From: a virus
DNA length: 64,000 nt
Direction: 5' to 3' (one strand)
Virus record (IMG/VR): IMGVR_UViG_3300044616_001452
Made by a program: the position numbers and the translations under genes. The notes beneath the pieces are model-generated. The model searched no databases and was not told the origin of the DNA. It saw nothing but the letters and a program-made list of their open reading frames with translations. Within the stretch, counting starts at the first letter, position 1. Every line of letters starts with the position of its first letter. Of the stretch, positions 38,109 to 50,835 are shown one piece after another.

Positions 38109-40508
38109 ATGGCAAATTCAGATAAAAATTTAGTTATCACACCTAATATAAGTTCATCATCAGATGATCCAAAGGTTGTATTCAGCGCCGCTAATACATC
38201 TGGAGGTCCTTTCAACATCACTGCTCGCGCATATCCGACCTCGAACGGAACTCTTTCTTTTGAAGGATCCGCAGGGCAGCTATTCTCGATTACGAACAGT
38301 CTGACGGGAACACTTTTCTCCGTCAATGACATTTCTGGTATTCCATCTATCGAAGTTCTTGATTCTGGTGCAGTCAAACTTGCACAATATTCGGGTAATG
38401 TGTTAGTGGGTGGCACAACCACCGACGGTGTAAGTAAACTTCAAGTTACAGGTTCAGCTAACGTATCTTCTCTAAGAATACAAGGATACGGGCAAGTCAT
38501 CAGCAGTTCAGGTACATGGACAGGACCAAATAGTGGATTGATTGGACCACAAGGTCCAATTGGACCAATCGGACCTATAGGACCCATAGGTCCTATTGGT
38601 CCAACAGGCCCACAAGGTCCAATAGGACCAGGAGGTCCGGGCGGTCCAGGTGGTCCAATCGGTCCTATTGGGCCCATAGGTCCAATCGGTCCTATTGGTC
38701 CAACAGGCCCACAAGGTCCAATTGGACCAGGAGGTCCGGGCGGTCCAGGTGGACCAATCGGCCCCATAGGCCCCATCGGTCCAATTGGTCCTATTGGTCC
38801 AACAGGCCCACAAGGTCCAATAGGACCAGGAGGTCCAGGTGGTCCAATCGGTCCTATTGGGCCCATCGGCCCCATCGGTCCAATAGGTCCTACTGGTCCA
38901 CAAGGTCCAATAGGACCAATAGGACCAATAGGACCAGGTGGACCAATAGGTCCAATTGGTCCCATAGGACCAACAGGCCCACAAGGTCCAATAGGACCGA
39001 TTGGACCAATAGGACCAGGAGGTCCGGGCGGTCCAGGTGGTCCAGGTGGTCCTATTGGGCCCATTGGTCCAATTGGTCCAGTAGGCACTCTAACTGCTCA
39101 GAAAAACTTTGTCGTTACAGATACTAATGTACTTGGAGCATCTGCTTGCTGGAACACATTAATTGGGCAAGGTGCAGGATGCGCGCTTTCATCAGGTGAT
39201 GGAAATGTTTTTATAGGAAAACAAGCAGGAAGATATAATAACGGGCAAGAAAATGTATTTTTAGGTTCATATGCTGGTTACAAATACACAGGAAATTATA
39301 ATATAGCTTTTGGAATTGCAAGTGCTATATGTGCTCAAGGAGCAAATCATAATGTAACTATGGGGTGTAGTGCAGGTAGATATCTTACAACAGGTAGTTA
39401 TAATATTTTCATAGGGAGATTGTCTGGTTTTTATAGTTCAATTGGAACCAGTAATGTTTTTATAGGTGATCAGGCAGGTTTCTGCGCCGGAAATTCTGCT
39501 GTAAAAACTAATAATGTTTTTATAGGTAGAAGGGCAGGATACGCAGGAGCCGGCCGACAATCTATTTTCATAGGGCAATATTCGGGAGAATTTGGTGCAG
39601 GGTCATTACCAAATGCAATTGGAATAGGCAACCAAGCAATGAGGCGTACTCAAGGTACTGCCGCTATTGCCATAGGACATTATGCTGGTGGTTGCTGTTC
39701 AGGAACTTGCGTAATTTCAATTGGTGCAAATGCTGGCATGTATAATGGTGGGCTAGGTAACGTGAATATTGGGCATTGTGCTGGTTGGTGCGCTTCATCC
39801 GGATTAAATGTAATGGTTGGTTATTTGACCGGGCTAATCAACACCGCAGCATGTAATAATTTTTTTGGTTACAACACAGGAAGATTTAACACAACAGGAA
39901 CTATTAATTCTTTTTTTGGCACATTTGCAGGTTACAATAATGCTTCGGGCTCTTGCAACACCGCATTTGGTTCATTTGCGGGTTGCAATATGTCTACCGG
40001 CTCGAATGTAACCACAATTGGATACGACGCGCAACCAAGTTCTGGAACAGTATCAAACGAAGTTACAATAGGAAATGGTGCAGTTACAAGCACAAGATTG
40101 AGGGGGCTAGTTGCAACAGGCAGTGCAATTTTAGAAACTTTTGTTACAGTTGGCGCGGCGACCGGAACAATAAATTATGATGTGTTTTCCCAGAGTGTTT
40201 ATTGGTCAAATTCAAACGCTACAGGAAACTGGACTTTAAACATAAGAGGAAATTCTACCACATCACTTAATAGCGTATTAGCCGTAAATCAAAGCATTTC
40301 TATCGCATTTATAGCACAACAAGGTGCAACAGCATATTATCAAACAGGTTTTCAAATAGACGGGTCGGCGGTAACTCCAAAATGGCAAACAGGTGTGGCA
40401 CCTGCCAGCGGAAATGCAAACTCAAATGATATGTATGTCATCACGATCTTAAAAACTGGATCGGCAGCGTATACTGTATTTGAAACACAGACTAAATTTG
40501 GATTATAA
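38109..40508 (+). CDS. Collagen-containing fibre with Cys-rich NxFIG..AG repeats and C-terminal adaptor domain
   Basis: [26 protein letters not shown]; collagen region; repeats; [20 protein letters not shown]. Confidence 0.8.
38544..39086 (+). repeat. Collagen-like repeat, about 60 triplets
   Basis: Continuous Gly-Pro-Y. Confidence 0.95.
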
Positions 40509-41702: not shown

Positions 41703-42344
41703 ATGAAACGTATATTAATTGCTACACCATGTCTTTATGGTAAAGTTGACGCATATTATGTACACAGTTTATGCGAATCAATTAAACTAGGGCTTAAACA
41801 CTCCTTAGCCATCAATGCAATTTTTCTCGCAGAAGAAAGTATACTCACAATTGCAAGAAATGAACTTATCAATTTAGCATATCGAGATGAATATGATGCT
41901 ATGGTCTTTATTGATGATGATGAACTTTGGGCTCCAGAAGCATTGATTGAAATTATTCTTTCAGAAAAGGATGTGGTTGGAGTTCCTGTTGTAAATAAAG
42001 GCGATGCTAAAGTAGAATATAATGTTTCTTATGATAAAAATAAAGTGTATAAAGATAAAGATGATGAGTATATCAAAGTCAGAAGTGTTGGTACAGGTTT
42101 CCTAAAATTATCCAGAAAAGTCATCGTTGATCTGTGTGAATCAAATTCGGAAATTATTTTCAGAAACAAAAAATTAAAAAATGTATTTGAATTTAATTAT
42201 ATAAACGGTGCATTTATAGGTGAAGATATAATGCTATGTCGAAAACTACATGAATTGGGGTATGGTATATGGATTAATCCAAAACATACCGTTTCACATA
42301 TGGGTGTAAAAATGTATAAAGGTGACTTTCAAAAAAATATTTAA
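41703..42344 (+). CDS. GT-A fold glycosyltransferase (GT2-like)
   Basis: ILIATP, ARNELI, VFIDDD (DxD), GTGFLKL, GEDIMLC..H.G. Confidence 0.75.
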   Translation: MKRILIATPCLYGKVDAYYVHSLCESIKLGLKHSLAINAIFLAEESILTIARNELINLAYRDEYDAMVFIDDDELWAPEALIEIILSEKDVVGVPVVNKGDAKVEYNVSYDKNKVYKDKDDEYIKVRSVGTGFLKLSRKVIVDLCESNSEIIFRNKKLKNVFEFNYINGAFIGEDIMLCRKLHELGYGIWINPKHTVSHMGVKMYKGDFQKNI

Positions 42345-42346
42345 TC

Positions 42347-43108
42347 ATGAAAAATAAAATTGATGTTGTTATACCAACAATGTGGGCATATGAGCCTTTT
42401 CCTAAAATTTTAGAAAAATATTCAAAGTTTGAATCTATCAATAATATTTTTTTAATTGACAATTCACTACATTCAAAAAATAAAAAAACAATCAAACATA
42501 TTGACAAAGTTGTTGAGATTTGCTATGGTAGAAACATTTATGTGAATTCAGCATGGAATGAAGGCTATCATAGATCAAAGGCTGATATACTGTGTCTGCT
42601 TAATGATGATATTTCAGTTGATGAAAGTATATTTGATAAAATGTCAGAGTTAGATTTCTCTGAAATAGATGTTATTGGAGTACATCTAAAAGGTAGTATT
42701 GATAATTATCATATTGTCGAACATGAAACTATTGAGGATGAATTGATAAAACTTAATGTTGATAAAACAAAAGCAATCGGTGGGCAAAGTTATGCTTTTG
42801 GTGTCTGCATGTTCATCAAACGTTCCTCTTATAGAGTTATACCAAGTTTATATAAAATTTGGTATGGAGATGACTACTTAATTCAAAAATGTAAAAACAT
42901 TTATGCTTTGAAAACCAGCAAAATAAAAGGAGAAATTTCAAAAACTATCACTGCATTCGATAAAGACAGTGACATACAAAAACGAATAGAACTGGATTCA
43001 AAAAATGCATACAAGTTTTTTTACCCTGCAAAAAATTGGGATTTAGTACAGAGCTATGCATTGAAAGAACAAAAAACTATACCATTTTTAGAAAGAAGGA
43101 AATATTGA
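42347..43108 (+). CDS. Glycosyltransferase family 2-like
   Basis: DVVIPTMW, LIDN, VNSAWNEG, LLNDDI, WYGDDYL. Confidence 0.75.
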   Translation: MKNKIDVVIPTMWAYEPFPKILEKYSKFESINNIFLIDNSLHSKNKKTIKHIDKVVEICYGRNIYVNSAWNEGYHRSKADILCLLNDDISVDESIFDKMSELDFSEIDVIGVHLKGSIDNYHIVEHETIEDELIKLNVDKTKAIGGQSYAFGVCMFIKRSSYRVIPSLYKIWYGDDYLIQKCKNIYALKTSKIKGEISKTITAFDKDSDIQKRIELDSKNAYKFFYPAKNWDLVQSYALKEQKTIPFLERRKY

Positions 43109-43110
43109 TT

Positions 43111-44007
43111 ATGAAATATAGTATTTTTCATTTGCAAGGTGGAATTGGAAAGCATATCGCAGCAACGGCCGTTGCGAAAACAATTAAAAATAATCATCCT
43201 GATAGGAAATTAATTGTTGTCTGCGCCTACCCAGAAATTTTTATTAATCTAAATTTTGTTGATAGAGTTTTTACATTAGGAAATACAAGTTATTTTTATC
43301 AAGAATATATTCAGGATAAAGACTCAATCATCTTTCATCATGAGCCATACTACACCACTAATCACATTCATAAAAGAAAAAAACTTATACCAAACTGGTG
43401 TGAAATGTATGGTTTGAATTACAATAATGAATGGCCAGAACTGAAGTTCAATAAATTGCAATATGATTTATCTAAAAGGCATTGGCTAAGAAAAAAACCC
43501 ATCATGTTAATTCATACCAATGGCGGTATGATGACAATTGATGCAAAATCATATGCATGGACAAGAGATATGCCAGAAAGCATAGCTCAAGAACTGGTCG
43601 ATCACTATAAAAAAGATTATCATATCTATCAAATTACTAAATTGAATTCACCAAAATTAAACGGTGCTGAACATATTTTTGCCACTCAACAACAATCATT
43701 GACACTGATGGAACTGTTTAGTTTAATACTACACAGTAAAAAAAGAATCTTTATTGATTCTTGTATGCAACATGCAGCAGCCGCAATGAAAAGGAAATCA
43801 ACAGTTCTTTGGAATGGCACCAGCCCTAAAGTTTTTGGATATGATGTACATGACAATATAAGCACAGAAATTCCATACGACTTCAAATTACCAGGAAGTT
43901 ATCTTTTTGATTTCGACTTTAATGGTAATGAATTAGAATATCCGTTTACTGATGATGTTAAATTATTCGATATAAATAAAATCATCGAGTCTGTTGATAA
44001 ACAATAG
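43111..44007 (+). CDS. GT-B fold glycosyltransferase (GT9/heptosyltransferase-like)
   Basis: GGIGKHIAATAV N-terminal motif; IFIDSCMQHAAAAM..STVLW.GT.P..FGY. Start moved to ATG 43111, behind an AAGGA RBS. Confidence 0.7.
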   Translation: MKYSIFHLQGGIGKHIAATAVAKTIKNNHPDRKLIVVCAYPEIFINLNFVDRVFTLGNTSYFYQEYIQDKDSIIFHHEPYYTTNHIHKRKKLIPNWCEMYGLNYNNEWPELKFNKLQYDLSKRHWLRKKPIMLIHTNGGMMTIDAKSYAWTRDMPESIAQELVDHYKKDYHIYQITKLNSPKLNGAEHIFATQQQSLTLMELFSLILHSKKRIFIDSCMQHAAAAMKRKSTVLWNGTSPKVFGYDVHDNISTEIPYDFKLPGSYLFDFDFNGNELEYPFTDDVKLFDINKIIESVDKQ

Positions 44008-44017
44008 AGGTAAAAAA

Positions 44018-44938
44018 ATGAGCGCAATTGAAAGAAAATATTATTTTATGTCTGGATTACCAAGATCGGGAAGCACTTTGCTTTCGTCATTGTTAAATCA
44101 GAATCCTAGATTTCATTCTGGGCCTAGTTCTCCTGTGGTTCCAACAATTTTAGCTTTGGAAAATTCTTTGTCTCAAGATGAATTATACCTTGCATATCCT
44201 AAACCAGAACAGGCAAGAAGACTTATCGCAAGTGTTTTACAAATCTATTATTCAGATGTAGAAAGACCTGTAATTTTTGATAAAAACAGGTCATGGGTTG
44301 ACAGAATGAATTATATTGAAGGGTATTTTGGTATTCAACCAAAAATTTTATACCCAGTTAGAAACATCGACGAAATTTTAGCCTCATTTATTTCTATGTA
44401 TCGCCGTAATCCATACACAGGAGAAGGTAAAATATCTTTTATGGATGAAATGTTGATTAAAAGTAATCAACCACTAAATGATGATTCTCGTTGTCAAATG
44501 CTTGCCGGTCCAATGGGTATTCTTGGGCAAAGTTACAATGGCTTAAAAACAGTTTTTGAGCAGGGAAAACAAAACTCAATTCATCTTATTGAGTATGATG
44601 AATTGATTAATCAACCAAAAGAAACTATGGAAAAAATATATGACTTCTTAGAAGAAAAATATTTTGAACATGATTATCAGAACATAGAAAATCTGCACAG
44701 AGAAAGAGACAAAGAAGTATATGGGCTTGCTGATATGCATGAAGTTAGAAAATCTCTAGGTAAGTCCTCATTAGATCCTAAAGAATTATTATCAGAAAAT
44801 ATTTTAAACTTATGTAAAGGTGTTGAATTCTGGAGGGACGTGAAAGAATTTGATCCCGCAGAACACGAAGAAGATGAAAACGAAATTAATTTCTTAAACA
44901 GTAACTTTGACAACAACGAAAAAATAATAGGAGCATAA
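44018..44938 (+). CDS. PAPS-dependent sulfotransferase
   Basis: GLPRSGSTLL (5'-PSB loop), DKNRSW, VRNIDEILASF (3'-PB), IEYDELI..PKETMEKIYDFL. Start ATG 44018 after GAGG. Confidence 0.88.
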   Translation: MSAIERKYYFMSGLPRSGSTLLSSLLNQNPRFHSGPSSPVVPTILALENSLSQDELYLAYPKPEQARRLIASVLQIYYSDVERPVIFDKNRSWVDRMNYIEGYFGIQPKILYPVRNIDEILASFISMYRRNPYTGEGKISFMDEMLIKSNQPLNDDSRCQMLAGPMGILGQSYNGLKTVFEQGKQNSIHLIEYDELINQPKETMEKIYDFLEEKYFEHDYQNIENLHRERDKEVYGLADMHEVRKSLGKSSLDPKELLSENILNLCKGVEFWRDVKEFDPAEHEEDENEINFLNSNFDNNEKIIGA

Positions 44939-44939
44939 C

Positions 44940-45239
44940 ATGACTTTAGAGGAAGAAGTGGAACAAAGAGAAGCACACATCAAATCCATAGAAGGAATTA
45001 GAGAAACTATACTACGAGCAAAAGATTCAGTGTGGGTTATCAATAATGAAATTGATAAAAAAAATAATTCAGCAGATGGAAAATTAACTAAAGAAGGAAA
45101 GGGCAACGTTGAAAGAAATGTTGGGCATCTAGAAATTATTTTGGCCACCCAATATATTGCTGAGTCGGGAGAGGACCTTTCTGAATTACAAGCAGCGGTC
45201 GTAACAGGAAAGGCATTACTTGCAGAAGAAACGGAATAA
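44940..45239 (+). CDS. Hypothetical helical protein
   Basis: AGGAG RBS; sits within the cassette. Confidence 0.6.
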   Translation: MTLEEEVEQREAHIKSIEGIRETILRAKDSVWVINNEIDKKNNSADGKLTKEGKGNVERNVGHLEIILATQYIAESGEDLSELQAAVVTGKALLAEETE

Positions 45240-45241
45240 TT

Positions 45242-46096
45242 ATGAAAAAGATTTTGATTATGGGTCTTCCTGGTTCAGGTAAGACATACTTTGCAGAAAG
45301 ATTGAAAAAATACTTGGAAGAAAATAGTAATTTACATAATGCTCCAGACGGTGCACTATCGAATTATGAAACCGTTCCAATGCACTGGAAGGCAAAAGTA
45401 GATTGGTTCAATGCAGACGAGGTAAGAAAACGTTATAATGATTGGGATTTTAGCCATGAAGGTAGAATTAGGCAAAGCCTGAGAATGGCAGAGTTTGCTT
45501 TAAAGTGTAAAGGTGACTATGTAATCTGTGACTTTGTTGCACCTTTAGTTGAGATGAGAAACAACTTTAAAGCCGATTGGACAATCTGGATGGACACCAT
45601 AGATGCAGGGCGGTTTGAGGATACTAATAAGGTATTCGTATCTCCTGAAGTATATGATTTCCGAATAAACGAAATGAATGCTGAAAAATGGGTTTCTTTT
45701 GTTGGTGAACATATACTAGAAAATAAAAGGCGTCCAAACTTTGACTGGAAAAAAGAAACAGTACAGATGCTAGGTAGATGGCAACCATGGCATGCTGGGC
45801 ACCGTGCGCTTTTTGAACGTGCCATACAGAAAACTGGGCAAGTTGTCATTCAAATTCGTGATTGCCAAGGGTGGCAAGGTACTAATCCATTTGCTATCGA
45901 GCAGGTTAAAAACTACATTCGAAAAGATTTAGACTTGCAATACCAAGGAATGTATACGATTCAAGTTGTTCCAAATATCGTAAATATTACTTATGGAAGA
46001 GATGTTGGTTATAAAATTGAGCAAGAAGTGTTTGAACAATCTATACATGATATCAGTGCAACAAAAATTAGAAAAGGAATGGGTTTCGATAAATAA
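45242..46096 (+). CDS. cysC: Adenylylsulfate kinase (CysC-like) fused to an HxGH nucleotidyltransferase (putative minimal PAPS synthase)
   Basis: P-loop GLPGSGKT, NADEVR..DFSHEGRIRQ, DFVAP; C-terminal GRWQPWHAGH, YGRDVG, ISATKIR. Confidence 0.8.
   Translation: MKKILIMGLPGSGKTYFAERLKKYLEENSNLHNAPDGALSNYETVPMHWKAKVDWFNADEVRKRYNDWDFSHEGRIRQSLRMAEFALKCKGDYVICDFVAPLVEMRNNFKADWTIWMDTIDAGRFEDTNKVFVSPEVYDFRINEMNAEKWVSFVGEHILENKRRPNFDWKKETVQMLGRWQPWHAGHRALFERAIQKTGQVVIQIRDCQGWQGTNPFAIEQVKNYIRKDLDLQYQGMYTIQVVPNIVNITYGRDVGYKIEQEVFEQSIHDISATKIRKGMGFDK
46088..46095 (+). promoter_or_regulatory. Late promoter variant (GATAAATA) upstream of gp13
   Basis: 7/8 match to TATAAATA. Confidence 0.55.
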
Positions 46097-48773: not shown

Positions 48774-49196
48774 ATGTCAAACTTTGAAAAAAATATGGCT
48801 GAAATTTTTGATGTAGTGCCAGTCGAAAAACCAAATTTACCAGTCGCAAAACAAACACCAAGCACAGAAGGTTTGGAAATAGACCTAGATGCCGACTATC
48901 TAGAATCCAGACAAACATACAAAGAGCTTATTGAAAAGGGCAATCAAGCTATTGACCACCTCCTTGCAATCGCATCAGAGACAGAACACCCAAGAGCATT
49001 TGAAGTTGTAGCCACACTCATTAAAAACACCACTGAGGCAAACGAAAAACTTCTAACTATGCAGAAAATGATGCGAGAAATGAAAGGTATGAAATCTAAT
49101 GATCAAAATAAGGTTTCTGTAGATAAAGCTATATTCATCGGATCGACTGCTGAACTGTCAAAACTGATAAAAGGTAAGAAATCTCTTGATGAATAA
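48774..49196 (+). CDS. gp16: Terminase small subunit gp16
   Basis: DYLESR, EHPRAFEVVATLIK, IFIGSTAEL. Confidence 0.93.
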   Translation: MSNFEKNMAEIFDVVPVEKPNLPVAKQTPSTEGLEIDLDADYLESRQTYKELIEKGNQAIDHLLAIASETEHPRAFEVVATLIKNTTEANEKLLTMQKMMREMKGMKSNDQNKVSVDKAIFIGSTAELSKLIKGKKSLDE

Positions 49197-50835
49197 AGAT
49201 TCTTATAGAGATAATCCTCTACTAAAACGTGCAGGAGTACAGCACAATTATACAGAAGAAGAGATTAAAGAATATATTACGTGTTCGAAAGATCCCGTTT
49301 ACTTTGCGGAAAAATATATCAAAATCGTGAACGTTGATAAAGGTTTGATACCGTTTGATATGTGGCCGTTTCAAAAAGATATGATTCGGTTGTTTCATGA
49401 AAACAGATTTGTAATTACAAAATGCCCCCGACAGGTCGGTAAAACAACCACATCAGTAGGTTACCTTCTTTGGCTAACACTCTTTTCTGATTCTCAAAAC
49501 ATTGCCGTTCTTGCAAATAAAGGTTCTTTAGCTAGAGACATTCTATCCAAGTATCAACTTGCGTATGAGAATTTACCTATGTGGTTGCAACAAGGTGTTG
49601 TGACCTGGAACAAAGGTAACGTCGAACTGGAAAACGGTTCAAAGATTATTGCTGCTTCAACCTCATCTTCTGCCATTCGAGGTGGAGCTTTCAACGTGGT
49701 TTTCTTGGACGAATTTGCGTTCGTTCCAGCCAATATTGCAAACGAATTCTTCAACTCTGTTTACCCTGTTATTTCGTCTGGTAAATCCACAAAAATCATT
49801 ATAGTTTCCACACCAAACGGTATGAATCTGTTCTACAAGCTTTGGATGGATGCTATAGGCAAGAAAAACGGATACAAACCTTTCCAAATTCATTGGTCCA
49901 TGGTGCCAGGTAGAGATGAAAAATGGAGAGAAGAAACAATCAAGAACACGTCCGAAGAACAATTTAGACAAGAGTTTGAATGTGAATTCTTAGGTTCAAC
50001 AAATACACTAATCTCTGGCTCAAAACTTGCGCAACTTGTGTATAGTGAGCCAGTTATTCGGCATGAATTGCTTCATATCTATGAGCCTCCAGTCAAAGGT
50101 GATGATGAAAAAACAAAAGATCATATATATGCTATATGCGTAGACCCTTCAGAGGGTAATAATCTAGACGATTCTGCATTTTCTGTCTTCGATATTTCAA
50201 CGGTACCATATAAGCAAGTAGCAAAATACAACAGTTCTTCTATTTCACCTCTTCTCTTCCCCACGGTAATCTACAATACAGCAAAACTATATAATGATGC
50301 ATATGTTTTAGTGGAGATTAACAATACTCCTCAAATAGCAGACACGTTACATCGTGATTTTGAATATGAAAATGTTGTAAAAGTTGAAACAGGAAATAAA
50401 AAAGCACAATCAATTGGTACGGGTTTTGGTAGAGGTGTACAACTTGGTGTGAAAATGTCTGCGCAGGTGAAAAGAATTGGTTGTTCAAATTTGAAAACAC
50501 TGATTGAATCCAATAAATTAATCATACAAGACTTTGACACGATCTCGCAATTAACAACATTTGTTTCGGCTCATAACAGTTTTAGAGCAGAAGAAGGTTC
50601 GAATGATGATATTGTTATGACACTCGTTATGTTTGCATGGATGACCACTCAGCAATATTTCAAAGAAATCGTAAATCATGATTTAAGAAAACAGATGCAA
50701 TTGGAAATGATGAATCAAAAGGACGAAGAAATACCCTCCTTTGGTTTATATGATGACGGAAAACAAGAAAAATACATCGTTGAAGGTGGTGATGTATGGC
50801 TAGTAAAGGAAGAAGAATCACTATTTAGATTCTGA
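49189..50835 (+). CDS. gp17: Terminase large subunit gp17
   Basis: Walker A PRQVGKTT, Walker B VFLDEFAF, IIIVSTPNG, nuclease domain (VDPSEG..DDIVMTL). An alternative TTG start lies at 49186. Confidence 0.96.
   Translation: MNKDSYRDNPLLKRAGVQHNYTEEEIKEYITCSKDPVYFAEKYIKIVNVDKGLIPFDMWPFQKDMIRLFHENRFVITKCPRQVGKTTTSVGYLLWLTLFSDSQNIAVLANKGSLARDILSKYQLAYENLPMWLQQGVVTWNKGNVELENGSKIIAASTSSSAIRGGAFNVVFLDEFAFVPANIANEFFNSVYPVISSGKSTKIIIVSTPNGMNLFYKLWMDAIGKKNGYKPFQIHWSMVPGRDEKWREETIKNTSEEQFRQEFECEFLGSTNTLISGSKLAQLVYSEPVIRHELLHIYEPPVKGDDEKTKDHIYAICVDPSEGNNLDDSAFSVFDISTVPYKQVAKYNSSSISPLLFPTVIYNTAKLYNDAYVLVEINNTPQIADTLHRDFEYENVVKVETGNKKAQSIGTGFGRGVQLGVKMSAQVKRIGCSNLKTLIESNKLIIQDFDTISQLTTFVSAHNSFRAEEGSNDDIVMTLVMFAWMTTQQYFKEIVNHDLRKQMQLEMMNQKDEEIPSFGLYDDGKQEKYIVEGGDVWLVKEEESLFRF

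Follow-up and report, generated by a model that had tools for sequence, protein, structure and literature searches.

Where does a phage-encoded sulfotransferase obtain its activated sulfate? The question is raised by the 64,000-nucleotide stretch of virus record IMGVR_UViG_3300044616_001452 (hereafter the window), which comes from an uncultured T4-like myophage. At positions 45242-46096 the window carries an open reading frame (ORF) of 284 amino acids (aa) in which a domain resembling adenosine 5'-phosphosulfate (APS) kinase is joined to a minimal HxGH nucleotidyltransferase (NT) domain, and a sulfotransferase gene stands nearby in the same packed block. From sequence comparison and gene context we propose, with a probability of about 0.6, that this fusion is a compact two-step synthase of 3'-phosphoadenosine 5'-phosphosulfate (PAPS) that feeds the adjacent phage sulfotransferase. 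The features on which the argument turns are the following.

45242-46096, + strand: 284-aa fusion, APS-kinase-like domain plus minimal HxGH adenylyltransferase domain, candidate PAPS synthase (ORF and translation; PHROG 10255 'kinase', 1e-45)
45242-45721, + strand: APS-kinase-type P-loop kinase domain, residues 1 to ~160 (Pfam, family profile, Foldseek, CysC alignment)
45749-46093, + strand: minimal HxGH NT domain, residues ~170-284 (Pfam, NCBIfam, PDB profile match, structure alignment)
45854-45862 and 45884-45892, + strand: inner motifs of the NT domain, IRD and NPF (N215-P-F), respectively (translation)
43994-44938, + strand: sulfotransferase (Pfam Sulfotransfer_3, 8.5e-16, 59 bits; Sulfotransfer_1, 9.3e-12; PHROG 27463, 8e-76)

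The fusion protein and its family

A sequence-only reading of this DNA had described a 284-aa fusion with the motifs GRWQPWHAGH, YGRDVG and ISATKIR, and a sulfotransferase beside it. Both descriptions proved accurate: the reading frame is open, the three motifs are present and strongly conserved, and the sulfotransferase is genuine, with its PRSGSTLL loop. The kinase P-loop G8LPGSGKT15 is encoded at 45263-45286, G178RWQPWHAGH187 at 45773-45802, Y251GRDVGY257 at 45992-46012 and I271SATKIR277 at 46052-46072. When 49 fused relatives were aligned, down to 35% identity, K14, R62, G178, R179, Q181, H184, H187, G252, R253, G256 and R277 were all invariant, and because of this invariance the motifs cannot be chance strings. 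The family is very large: at 90% identity it falls into at least 8000 clusters, and at 50% identity 2040 representatives reach E<=1e-3. AlphaFold2 modelled the fusion confidently as two domains, with a predicted local distance difference test score (pLDDT) of 93.7 and a predicted template-modelling score (pTM) of 0.85. One high-GC relative (P0162, 395 aa) has a DUF4118 membrane domain N-terminal to the kinase-NT fusion.

The N-terminal domain

The kinase domain matches Pfam APS_kinase PF01583 at 27.3 bits against a cut-off of 21.1, over positions 32-94 only of the 152-position profile, and the same model is matched by 46 of the 62 relatives scanned (alignment A2). When the family profile was compared with PDB, the 12 best matches were all APS kinases, as were 17 of the first 18, and the best of them reached 1.5e-15. 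Likewise, the first ~20 rows listed by Foldseek for the full fusion model were APS kinases or PAPS synthetases, with target-normalised TM scores up to 0.72. Besides the P-loop, the substrate motifs N57-A-D59-E-V-R62 and D69-F70-S-H-E-G-R75 are recognisable. Alignment with the canonical CysC parts of two relatives, P0221 and P0271 (DGDxxR / GFSxxDR), showed that K14, D59, R62 and R75 are invariant and F70 nearly so; in the window kinase, Asn replaces the first Asp of DGD. On these grounds we class the N-terminal domain with the APS-kinase family, as a divergent member with a trimmed lid, and the prediction that it phosphorylates the 3'-OH of APS is well supported.

The C-terminal domain

Taken alone, the NT domain matches Pfam CTP_transf_like PF01467 marginally (21.9 bits, cut-off 21), a family found in 61 of the 62 relatives. 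The NCBIfam NMNAT/NadM models TIGR01527 and PRK01153 gave ~1e-6 and 26-28 bits, far under their cut-offs of 127-418. In PDB, Francisella NadM (2qjt) was found at 2.7e-5 from the single sequence, and archaeal NMNAT (1f9a) at 3e-11 from the family profile. The ATP-sulfurylase family PF01747 gave no match to the window protein at E<=0.1, nor does it figure in the 25 families that most of the 62 scanned relatives match. The Sat domain of 2gks scored an insignificant 2.6 and -3.4 bits against the family profile, with which it aligned only at PxHxxH and ISGTEIR. One 126-aa SAR11 NT protein encoded in an aprBA cluster gave a PF01747 signal of 17 bits, under the threshold of 24.3. These results do not support the basis of the sequence-only reading, which took the domain for a stripped-down ATP sulfurylase from Sat-like motifs; by homology it is not of the Sat type: PF01747 is not matched, the motif is of the NMNAT kind, and 1f9a is found at 3e-11 when the Sat domain of 2gks is not significant.

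In a comparison anchored on the histidines, H184 and H187 form the HxxH itself, and Gly and Trp stand where Sat has Gln and Arg, the Sat motif being, as we take it, Q-x-R-N-P-x-H-x-x-H. HxxH and IS[GA]T motifs are common to the whole superfamily. G252-R253-D254, which may correspond to the GRD loop of Sat, and the I271-SATKIR motif are both present at a spacing of 14 residues. The domain also departs from NMNAT. It has ~115-120 aa against the 168 aa of the Methanocaldococcus jannaschii enzyme (MjNMNAT), that is, ~50 residues fewer; HMMER and Foldseek aligned it well with NMNAT over the first 70-79 residues only, the sequence alignment with 1f9a ending at about residue 70. The complete NMNAT core, of about 170 aa, has its nicotinamide site in a segment between strands 3 and 4, and the parts that the domain lacks were identified by sequence. 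Specific to the family are R206, located after strand 2 and nearly invariant, and the invariant G-R-[DNG]-V-G-Y loop. The short domain and its conserved arginines are consistent with a small anionic acceptor. By its sequence the domain is a member of the HxGH superfamily but belongs neither to the Sat family, since defining features of Sat, among them the PF01747 match, the RNP loop and domain I, were looked for and are absent, nor to bona fide NMNAT, since the scores lie far under the cut-offs and the domain is shortened.

The NT domain was also modelled separately (pLDDT 92.9). VIA-align matched this model to PPAT (Z 9.6), MjNMNAT (9.6), NadM (9.4), NadR (8.8) and the Thermus ATP sulfurylase 1v47 (8.7), the last over 116 residues and within 1 Z unit of PPAT and NMNAT; the fold also matches TagD, HldC and CCT relatives. 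Foldseek with the NT domain alone returned nothing at E<=1e-3, its top rows being PPAT, NadM and TagD over ~76 columns.

These resemblances raise the possibility of an enzyme of nicotinamide adenine dinucleotide (NAD) salvage: a NadR-like protein with its domains in swapped order (ribosylnicotinamide kinase and NMN adenylyltransferase), which would replenish NAD+ in the infected cell, perhaps to counter defences that deplete it. In sequence the C-terminal domain is indeed best matched by archaeal NMNAT, NadM and NadR, with GRFQPxHxGH, NPF and ISxTxIR in common; one JGI record labels a relative 'nicotinamide riboside kinase', and in Sano-type phages the fusion lies beside a COG3236-annotated gene and a MazG gene. 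The kinase, however, is of the APS type (1e-15, against 1e-3 or worse for Nrk1 and NadR), the NT domain is too short for MjNMNAT and loses its alignment with 1f9a as described above, and the NMNAT equivalog models are missed by a wide margin. The context, too, is sulfotransferase, aprBA or CysC, and never nadV or Nudix in the loci examined. We consider NAD salvage improbable.

The high score of PPAT suggests another solution, an analogue of coenzyme A (CoA) synthase in which a PPAT-like adenylyltransferase is joined to a kinase for the 3'-OH of dephospho-CoA, or else a maker of some other 3'-phospho-adenylyl compound. PPAT shares the top structural match, APS kinase and dephospho-CoA kinase both phosphorylate the 3'-OH of an adenylate, and the SAR11 neighbours include a CoA-binding protein and an enoyl-CoA hydratase. 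Such an enzyme would nevertheless leave the fusion to canonical CysC and the linkages to aprBA and to sulfotransferases unexplained, and no pantothenate-pathway genes occur in any context seen. SAR11 genomes, moreover, hold CoaE and two canonical PF01467 enzymes of 167 and 176 aa, presumably CoaD and NadD. The 167-aa enzyme, with CoaE, speaks against the CoA function and the 176-aa enzyme against the NAD function; because these genomes are already so equipped, we rate both low, and the CoA analogue as the more improbable of the two.

Fused and split architectures

We then return to the PAPS synthase proposal, for which the company kept by the NT domain is informative. In P0221 (311 aa), the same NT domain (46% identical) is N-terminal to a complete canonical CysC (PF01583, 212 bits). 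This NT-CysC architecture of ~310 aa accounts for nearly all of the 120 best-scoring clusters at 90% identity, which come from marine metagenomes. P0200 has the NT domain first, followed by a kinase-like domain. On SAR11 and SAR86 chromosomes, kinase (136 aa) and NT (124 aa) are encoded by separate, overlapping genes, as in the SAR11 locus L143 (10001-10411 and 10408-10782). A predicted complex of the split SAR11 kinase and NT scored 0.00, and no conclusion was drawn from it.

Large unannotated proteins flank the NT-CysC fusion in two loci (L181, L184) and had no significant Pfam match (best E 0.04). In a further locus, the NT-CysC fusion is followed by a 725-residue gene (L180 10014-12191) that is listed as a single product although, read with table 11, it is interrupted once by an in-frame stop.

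SAR11 and SAR86 genomes

Published work describes SAR11 as devoid of sat and cysDNCHIJ, with aprBA, 'cysC' and cysQ kept and aprBA under strong purifying selection; ATP sulfurylase is absent in most SAR11, and the sulfate pathways are described as incomplete (PMC5069961, PMC10356861, PMC12636525). Among 151 Pelagibacterales genomes, we found NT in 122 and AprA in 123: both were present in 117 (116 without the unpublished genome G086, which has both genes), NT only in 5, AprA only in 6 and neither in 23, these being raw counts that ignore shared ancestry and come from genomes many of which are incomplete.

In 23 Pelagibacterales genomes the two genes are physically close, with NT and aprA 360-1424 bp apart in one of two arrangements. 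The first, seen for instance in L186 and L187, places kinase and NT in convergent orientation to aprB, aprA and a 116-aa ORF. The second, that of L188 and L189, is a single-strand cluster with short gaps: a TenA-like gene comes first, then NT, the gene of a 263-aa membrane protein, aprB and aprA, and after these the 116-aa ORF and a TauE sulfite exporter. The four genomes that have this second arrangement yielded no APS-kinase homologue above the Pfam cut-off. The sat gene of Allochromatium vinosum is reported to be co-transcribed with aprMBA (PMC3779200). By analogy, the NT protein of the second arrangement would act without a kinase partner, in the slot that sat occupies in sat-aprMBA.

The conserved 116-aa ORF lies directly 3' of aprA (L188 7341-7691, L186 5493-5843, L187 4498-4848) and has no Pfam match. 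In L188 it is followed by the exporter gene, of TauE/SafE type, and the gene ahead of NT is TenA/PQQC-like.

The gaps in the pathway were examined in two sets of genomes. Neither PF01747 (Sat) nor CysD was found in five SAR11 genomes, all of which have AprA and 1-8 Sulfotransfer_3 matches; in two of the five, the kinase of the fusion family is the only APS-kinase homologue. In five SAR86 or other gammaproteobacterial genomes with the kinase-NT pair, no Sat, CysD or AprA was detected, and four of them have strong sulfotransferases (139-165 bits). If these SAR86-type sulfotransferases use PAPS, the kinase-NT pair is the only visible route to it from sulfate.

In variable islands of SAR11 genomes (L177 2865-7050, G002; L178 3889-8958, G001), a canonical CysC is found either as a 182-aa protein or as a 364-aa protein with an unassigned C-terminal half. 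Beside it lie genes for a 756-775-aa PPDK_N plus PEP-utilizer protein, a class-I glutamine amidotransferase, a formyltransferase and a sugar nucleotidyltransferase. The island CysC of G001 also has a sulfotransferase ~6 kb away.

The same genomes bear on the alternative that only the kinase half belongs to sulfur metabolism, converting host APS to PAPS for the sulfotransferase, and that the NT domain activates another phosphorylated acceptor of a glycan pathway (in the manner of HldE, TagD or LicC) or is a nucleotide-binding regulatory module. In SAR11, AprBA could supply the APS without a sulfurylase. Genes for glycosyltransferases, HAD phosphatases, carbamoyltransferases and epimerases abound in the window and related loci, together with an extra cytidylyltransferase-like gene, the NT domain matches the generic CTP_transf_like family, and structurally it ties with PPAT, TagD, HldC and CCT relatives. 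The SAR86 genomes carrying the pair, however, show no Sat, CysD or AprA as a source of APS. The NT domain is attached or adjacent to APS kinases in three architectures, one of them the fusion to canonical CysC, and it occurs inside aprBA clusters without any above-cut-off kinase. Finally, all catalytic HxGH and ISxT residues are invariant, which makes a purely regulatory module unlikely. Taken together, these points leave a role of the kinase alone in sulfur metabolism rather unlikely, though clearly ahead of the NAD and CoA functions.

Phage and bacterial neighbourhoods

Sulfotransferases are met beside the fusion in phage loci more often than any other gene family (27 of 83 non-redundant loci). 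Of the 38 phage loci that extend at least 5 kb to each side of the fusion, 12 have a sulfotransferase within 5 kb; it is then always encoded on the strand of the fusion and in some loci directly adjoins it. Bradyrhizobium and relatives have a TPR-Sulfotransfer_3 gene that abuts the fusion gene; an arylsulfotransferase-like gene does so in Inquilinus and one Rhodospirillaceae genome. In other Alphaproteobacteria there is no conserved synteny apart from recurring sulfotransferases. The fusion is also carried by cultured phages of Xylella, Xanthomonas and Stenotrophomonas (Sano, Salvo, Bacata and DLP6), at 32-39% identity.

In the siphophages among them the fusion gene overlaps its upstream gene, as in Sano (L001 5559-6732, a hypothetical protein) and in Bacata (L003 4559-5735), where the upstream gene is annotated COG3236 / GTP cyclohydrolase II. 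Genes for a MazG-like pyrophosphatase and a 'cysteine dioxygenase' are located near the Sano fusion. In 10 phage and 2 cellular loci, a 158-aa cytidylyltransferase-like gene (PF01467, 5.5e-9; L017 9526-10002) lies immediately upstream of the fusion. Related loci also hold carbamoyltransferase, HAD phosphatase, TylF-like methyltransferase, epimerase, RCC1-repeat and radical-SAM genes.

The sulfotransferase block in the window

Around the fusion, the window carries tail-sheath, neck and collagen-like fibre genes, and the large terminase (49186-50835) is ~55% identical to cyanomyophage terminases. The fusion is the last gene of a tightly packed co-directional run, which leads from three glycosyltransferase-like genes through the sulfotransferase and a 99-aa ORF to the fusion ORF. 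The members of the run and its immediate surroundings not listed above are the following.

41703-42344, + strand: glycosyltransferase-like gene 1, weakly GT2 (sub-threshold Pfam Glycos_transf_2)
42347-43108, + strand: second gene of the glycosyltransferase-like trio (no match)
43036-44007, + strand: glycosyltransferase-like gene 3, weakly GT9 (sub-threshold Pfam Glyco_transf_9; one PHROG match)
43971-43978, + strand: TATAAATA, T4 late-promoter consensus (pattern search), 40 nt 5' of the sulfotransferase ATG at 44018
44940-45239, + strand: 99-aa ORF without assigned function, between the sulfotransferase and fusion genes (ORF list)

The likely start of the sulfotransferase is the ATG at 44018, ahead of which stands a GAGG Shine-Dalgarno sequence. 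The PRSGSTLL loop is encoded at 44060-44083 and is, we assume, the 5'-phosphosulfate-binding loop; the enzyme is the presumed consumer of the fusion product. The stop of the 99-aa ORF is located 2 nt ahead of the fusion ATG, and this ORF had no match in Pfam or PHROG. The window holds 3 copies of TATAAATA against 7.5 expected by chance, which is fewer rather than an enrichment, so that its position is what speaks for a late promoter here, and is suggestive.

At 38109-40508, ~1.2 kb ahead of the genes for glycosylation and sulfation, lies the gene of a 799-aa protein with long collagen-like G-P-[IT/Q] repeats, which could plausibly be decorated with the glycans.

A proposed pathway

In HxGH enzymes, an oxyanion attacks the alpha-phosphate of ATP and pyrophosphate (PPi) leaves. 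To our knowledge, the only reaction of this kind that stands next to both APS kinase and APS reductase in metabolism is the adenylylation of sulfate, and it is for this reason that we propose it for the C-terminal domain. The domain would convert sulfate and ATP into APS and PPi, and would descend from the archaeal-NMNAT/NadM branch rather than from Sat or CysD. The N-terminal domain, by homology, would then convert APS and ATP into PAPS and ADP, which would help to draw the unfavourable first reaction forward, as happens in known PAPS synthases. The context suggests that the PAPS would be used by the sulfotransferase encoded two genes upstream. As the block holds glycosyltransferase-like genes amid virion genes, the target is likely a sulfated glycan on the virion or on a cell-surface structure. 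In free-living SAR11, NT alone or with the kinase would work beside APS reductase, in the reaction APS + PPi <-> ATP + sulfate.

A wider proposal follows the same lines. The 115-aa HxGH domain would represent a third class of ATP sulfurylase, apart from Sat and CysDN and derived from NMNAT-like adenylyltransferases; alone, it would be the 'missing sat' beside AprBA in most SAR11, and with the kinase the only route to PAPS in SAR11 and SAR86, and phages would use the fused form to sulfate virion glycans in hosts without known sulfate activation. We give this wider proposal even odds, somewhat below those of the phage PAPS synthase.

Several observations weigh against a PAPS synthase. As for the protein itself, the lid segment of the kinase (KGLYKKAR...FTG) has lost ~18 residues relative to the CysC of P0221 and P0271. 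The NT domain is, by sequence, closest to archaeal NMNAT/NadM and not to Sat; it follows the NMNAT pattern G-R-[FW]-Q-P-[FW]-H-x-G-H and lacks the Sat motif. It is also without the N-terminal PUA-like domain I of Sat, being preceded by the kinase instead. Fold comparison of the model places the domain in the superfamily and cannot tell Sat from NMNAT or PPAT. As for context, a sulfotransferase within 5 kb is missing from about two thirds of the well-flanked phage loci. The genomes of Sano, Bacata and DLP6 were searched for a sulfotransferase or PAPS reductase and neither was detected; in Sano and Bacata the fusion gene is among the early genes. In most SAR11 the pair sits amid genes of osmolyte and C1 catabolism and not sulfur genes, the main clade having it among M24 hydrolase, dimethylglycine-dehydrogenase-like and enoyl-CoA hydratase genes; in streamlined genomes such a neighbourhood may not mean shared function. 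To these are added the uncorrected ancestry in the NT/AprA counts and the supply of APS that AprBA could provide in SAR11, which does not extend to the SAR86 genomes examined.

The sequence-only reading had proposed that the fusion may be a minimal PAPS synthase with ATP sulfurylase activity, in keeping with the adjacent sulfotransferase, and with its domains in animal-type order. The function finds support in the fusions, the operon context and the pathway holes, and loses the motif argument on which it had been built. The order stands in that the kinase is N-terminal as in metazoan PAPSS, the sulfurylase-like part being homologous at the superfamily level only. The superposition that it had suggested as a check, Sat versus NMNAT and PPAT, gives Z 8.7 against 9.6 and does not separate them. 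We list the fusion as a candidate variant of ATP sulfurylase / PAPS synthase. The comparisons bring to light the family of fusions to canonical CysC, the aprBA linkage with its kinase-less form, and the co-occurrence with AprA. No description of the fusion family was found in the literature on phage PAPS synthesis and on alternative SAR11 sulfurylases.

Significance and comparison with known systems

All sulfate activation begins with ATP sulfurylase, and we know of just two types of this enzyme, Sat and CysDN. SAR11 is the most abundant marine heterotroph. If the proposal is correct, a sulfurylase of 115-125 aa would alter the annotation of the sulfur cycle in SAR11, SAR86 and many metagenomes, and would explain how sulfotransferases are supplied in SAR11 and SAR86 cells and in their phages. 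It would also be the smallest known sulfate-activating module, useful for the enzymatic regeneration of PAPS. For phage biology, it would point to sulfated virion glycans as a widespread, self-supplied modification.

The nearest functional parallel is metazoan PAPSS1/2 (1x6v), which has the same two-step chemistry as that proposed here, the same domain order and a homologous kinase half. PAPSS1/2, however, is ~620 aa long and uses a Sat-type sulfurylase with a PUA-like domain and a large catalytic domain, whereas the phage fusion has as its second domain one of 115 aa from the NMNAT/NadM branch that PF01747 does not match, and its kinase lid is shortened. The Sat-CysC fusions of Aquifex aeolicus (2gks) and Penicillium (1i2d) and the CysN/CysC proteins likewise join a sulfate-activating enzyme, here a candidate one, to APS kinase, and the P0221-type relatives share canonical CysC with them. 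They differ in that their sulfurylase is Sat (PF01747) or the CysD/CysN GTPase system.

With archaeal NMNAT/NadM (1f9a from M. jannaschii; 2qjt), the NT domain shares GR[FW]QP[FW]HxGH, NPF and IS[AG]TxIR, 22-29% identity and Z scores of 9.4-9.6. In contrast to these enzymes, it is ~50 residues shorter, scores far below the cut-offs, has its own G-R-[DNG]-V-G-Y loop and R206, and belongs to a family whose genomic context is APS and PAPS metabolism and not NAD. Lastly, some Pelagibacterales recall the sat-aprMBA cluster reported for Allochromatium vinosum (PMC3779200): NT is directly followed on its strand by a membrane-protein gene, aprB and aprA, TauE coming further downstream, and the Pelagibacterales gene encodes 126 aa in the place of a Sat of ~400 aa.

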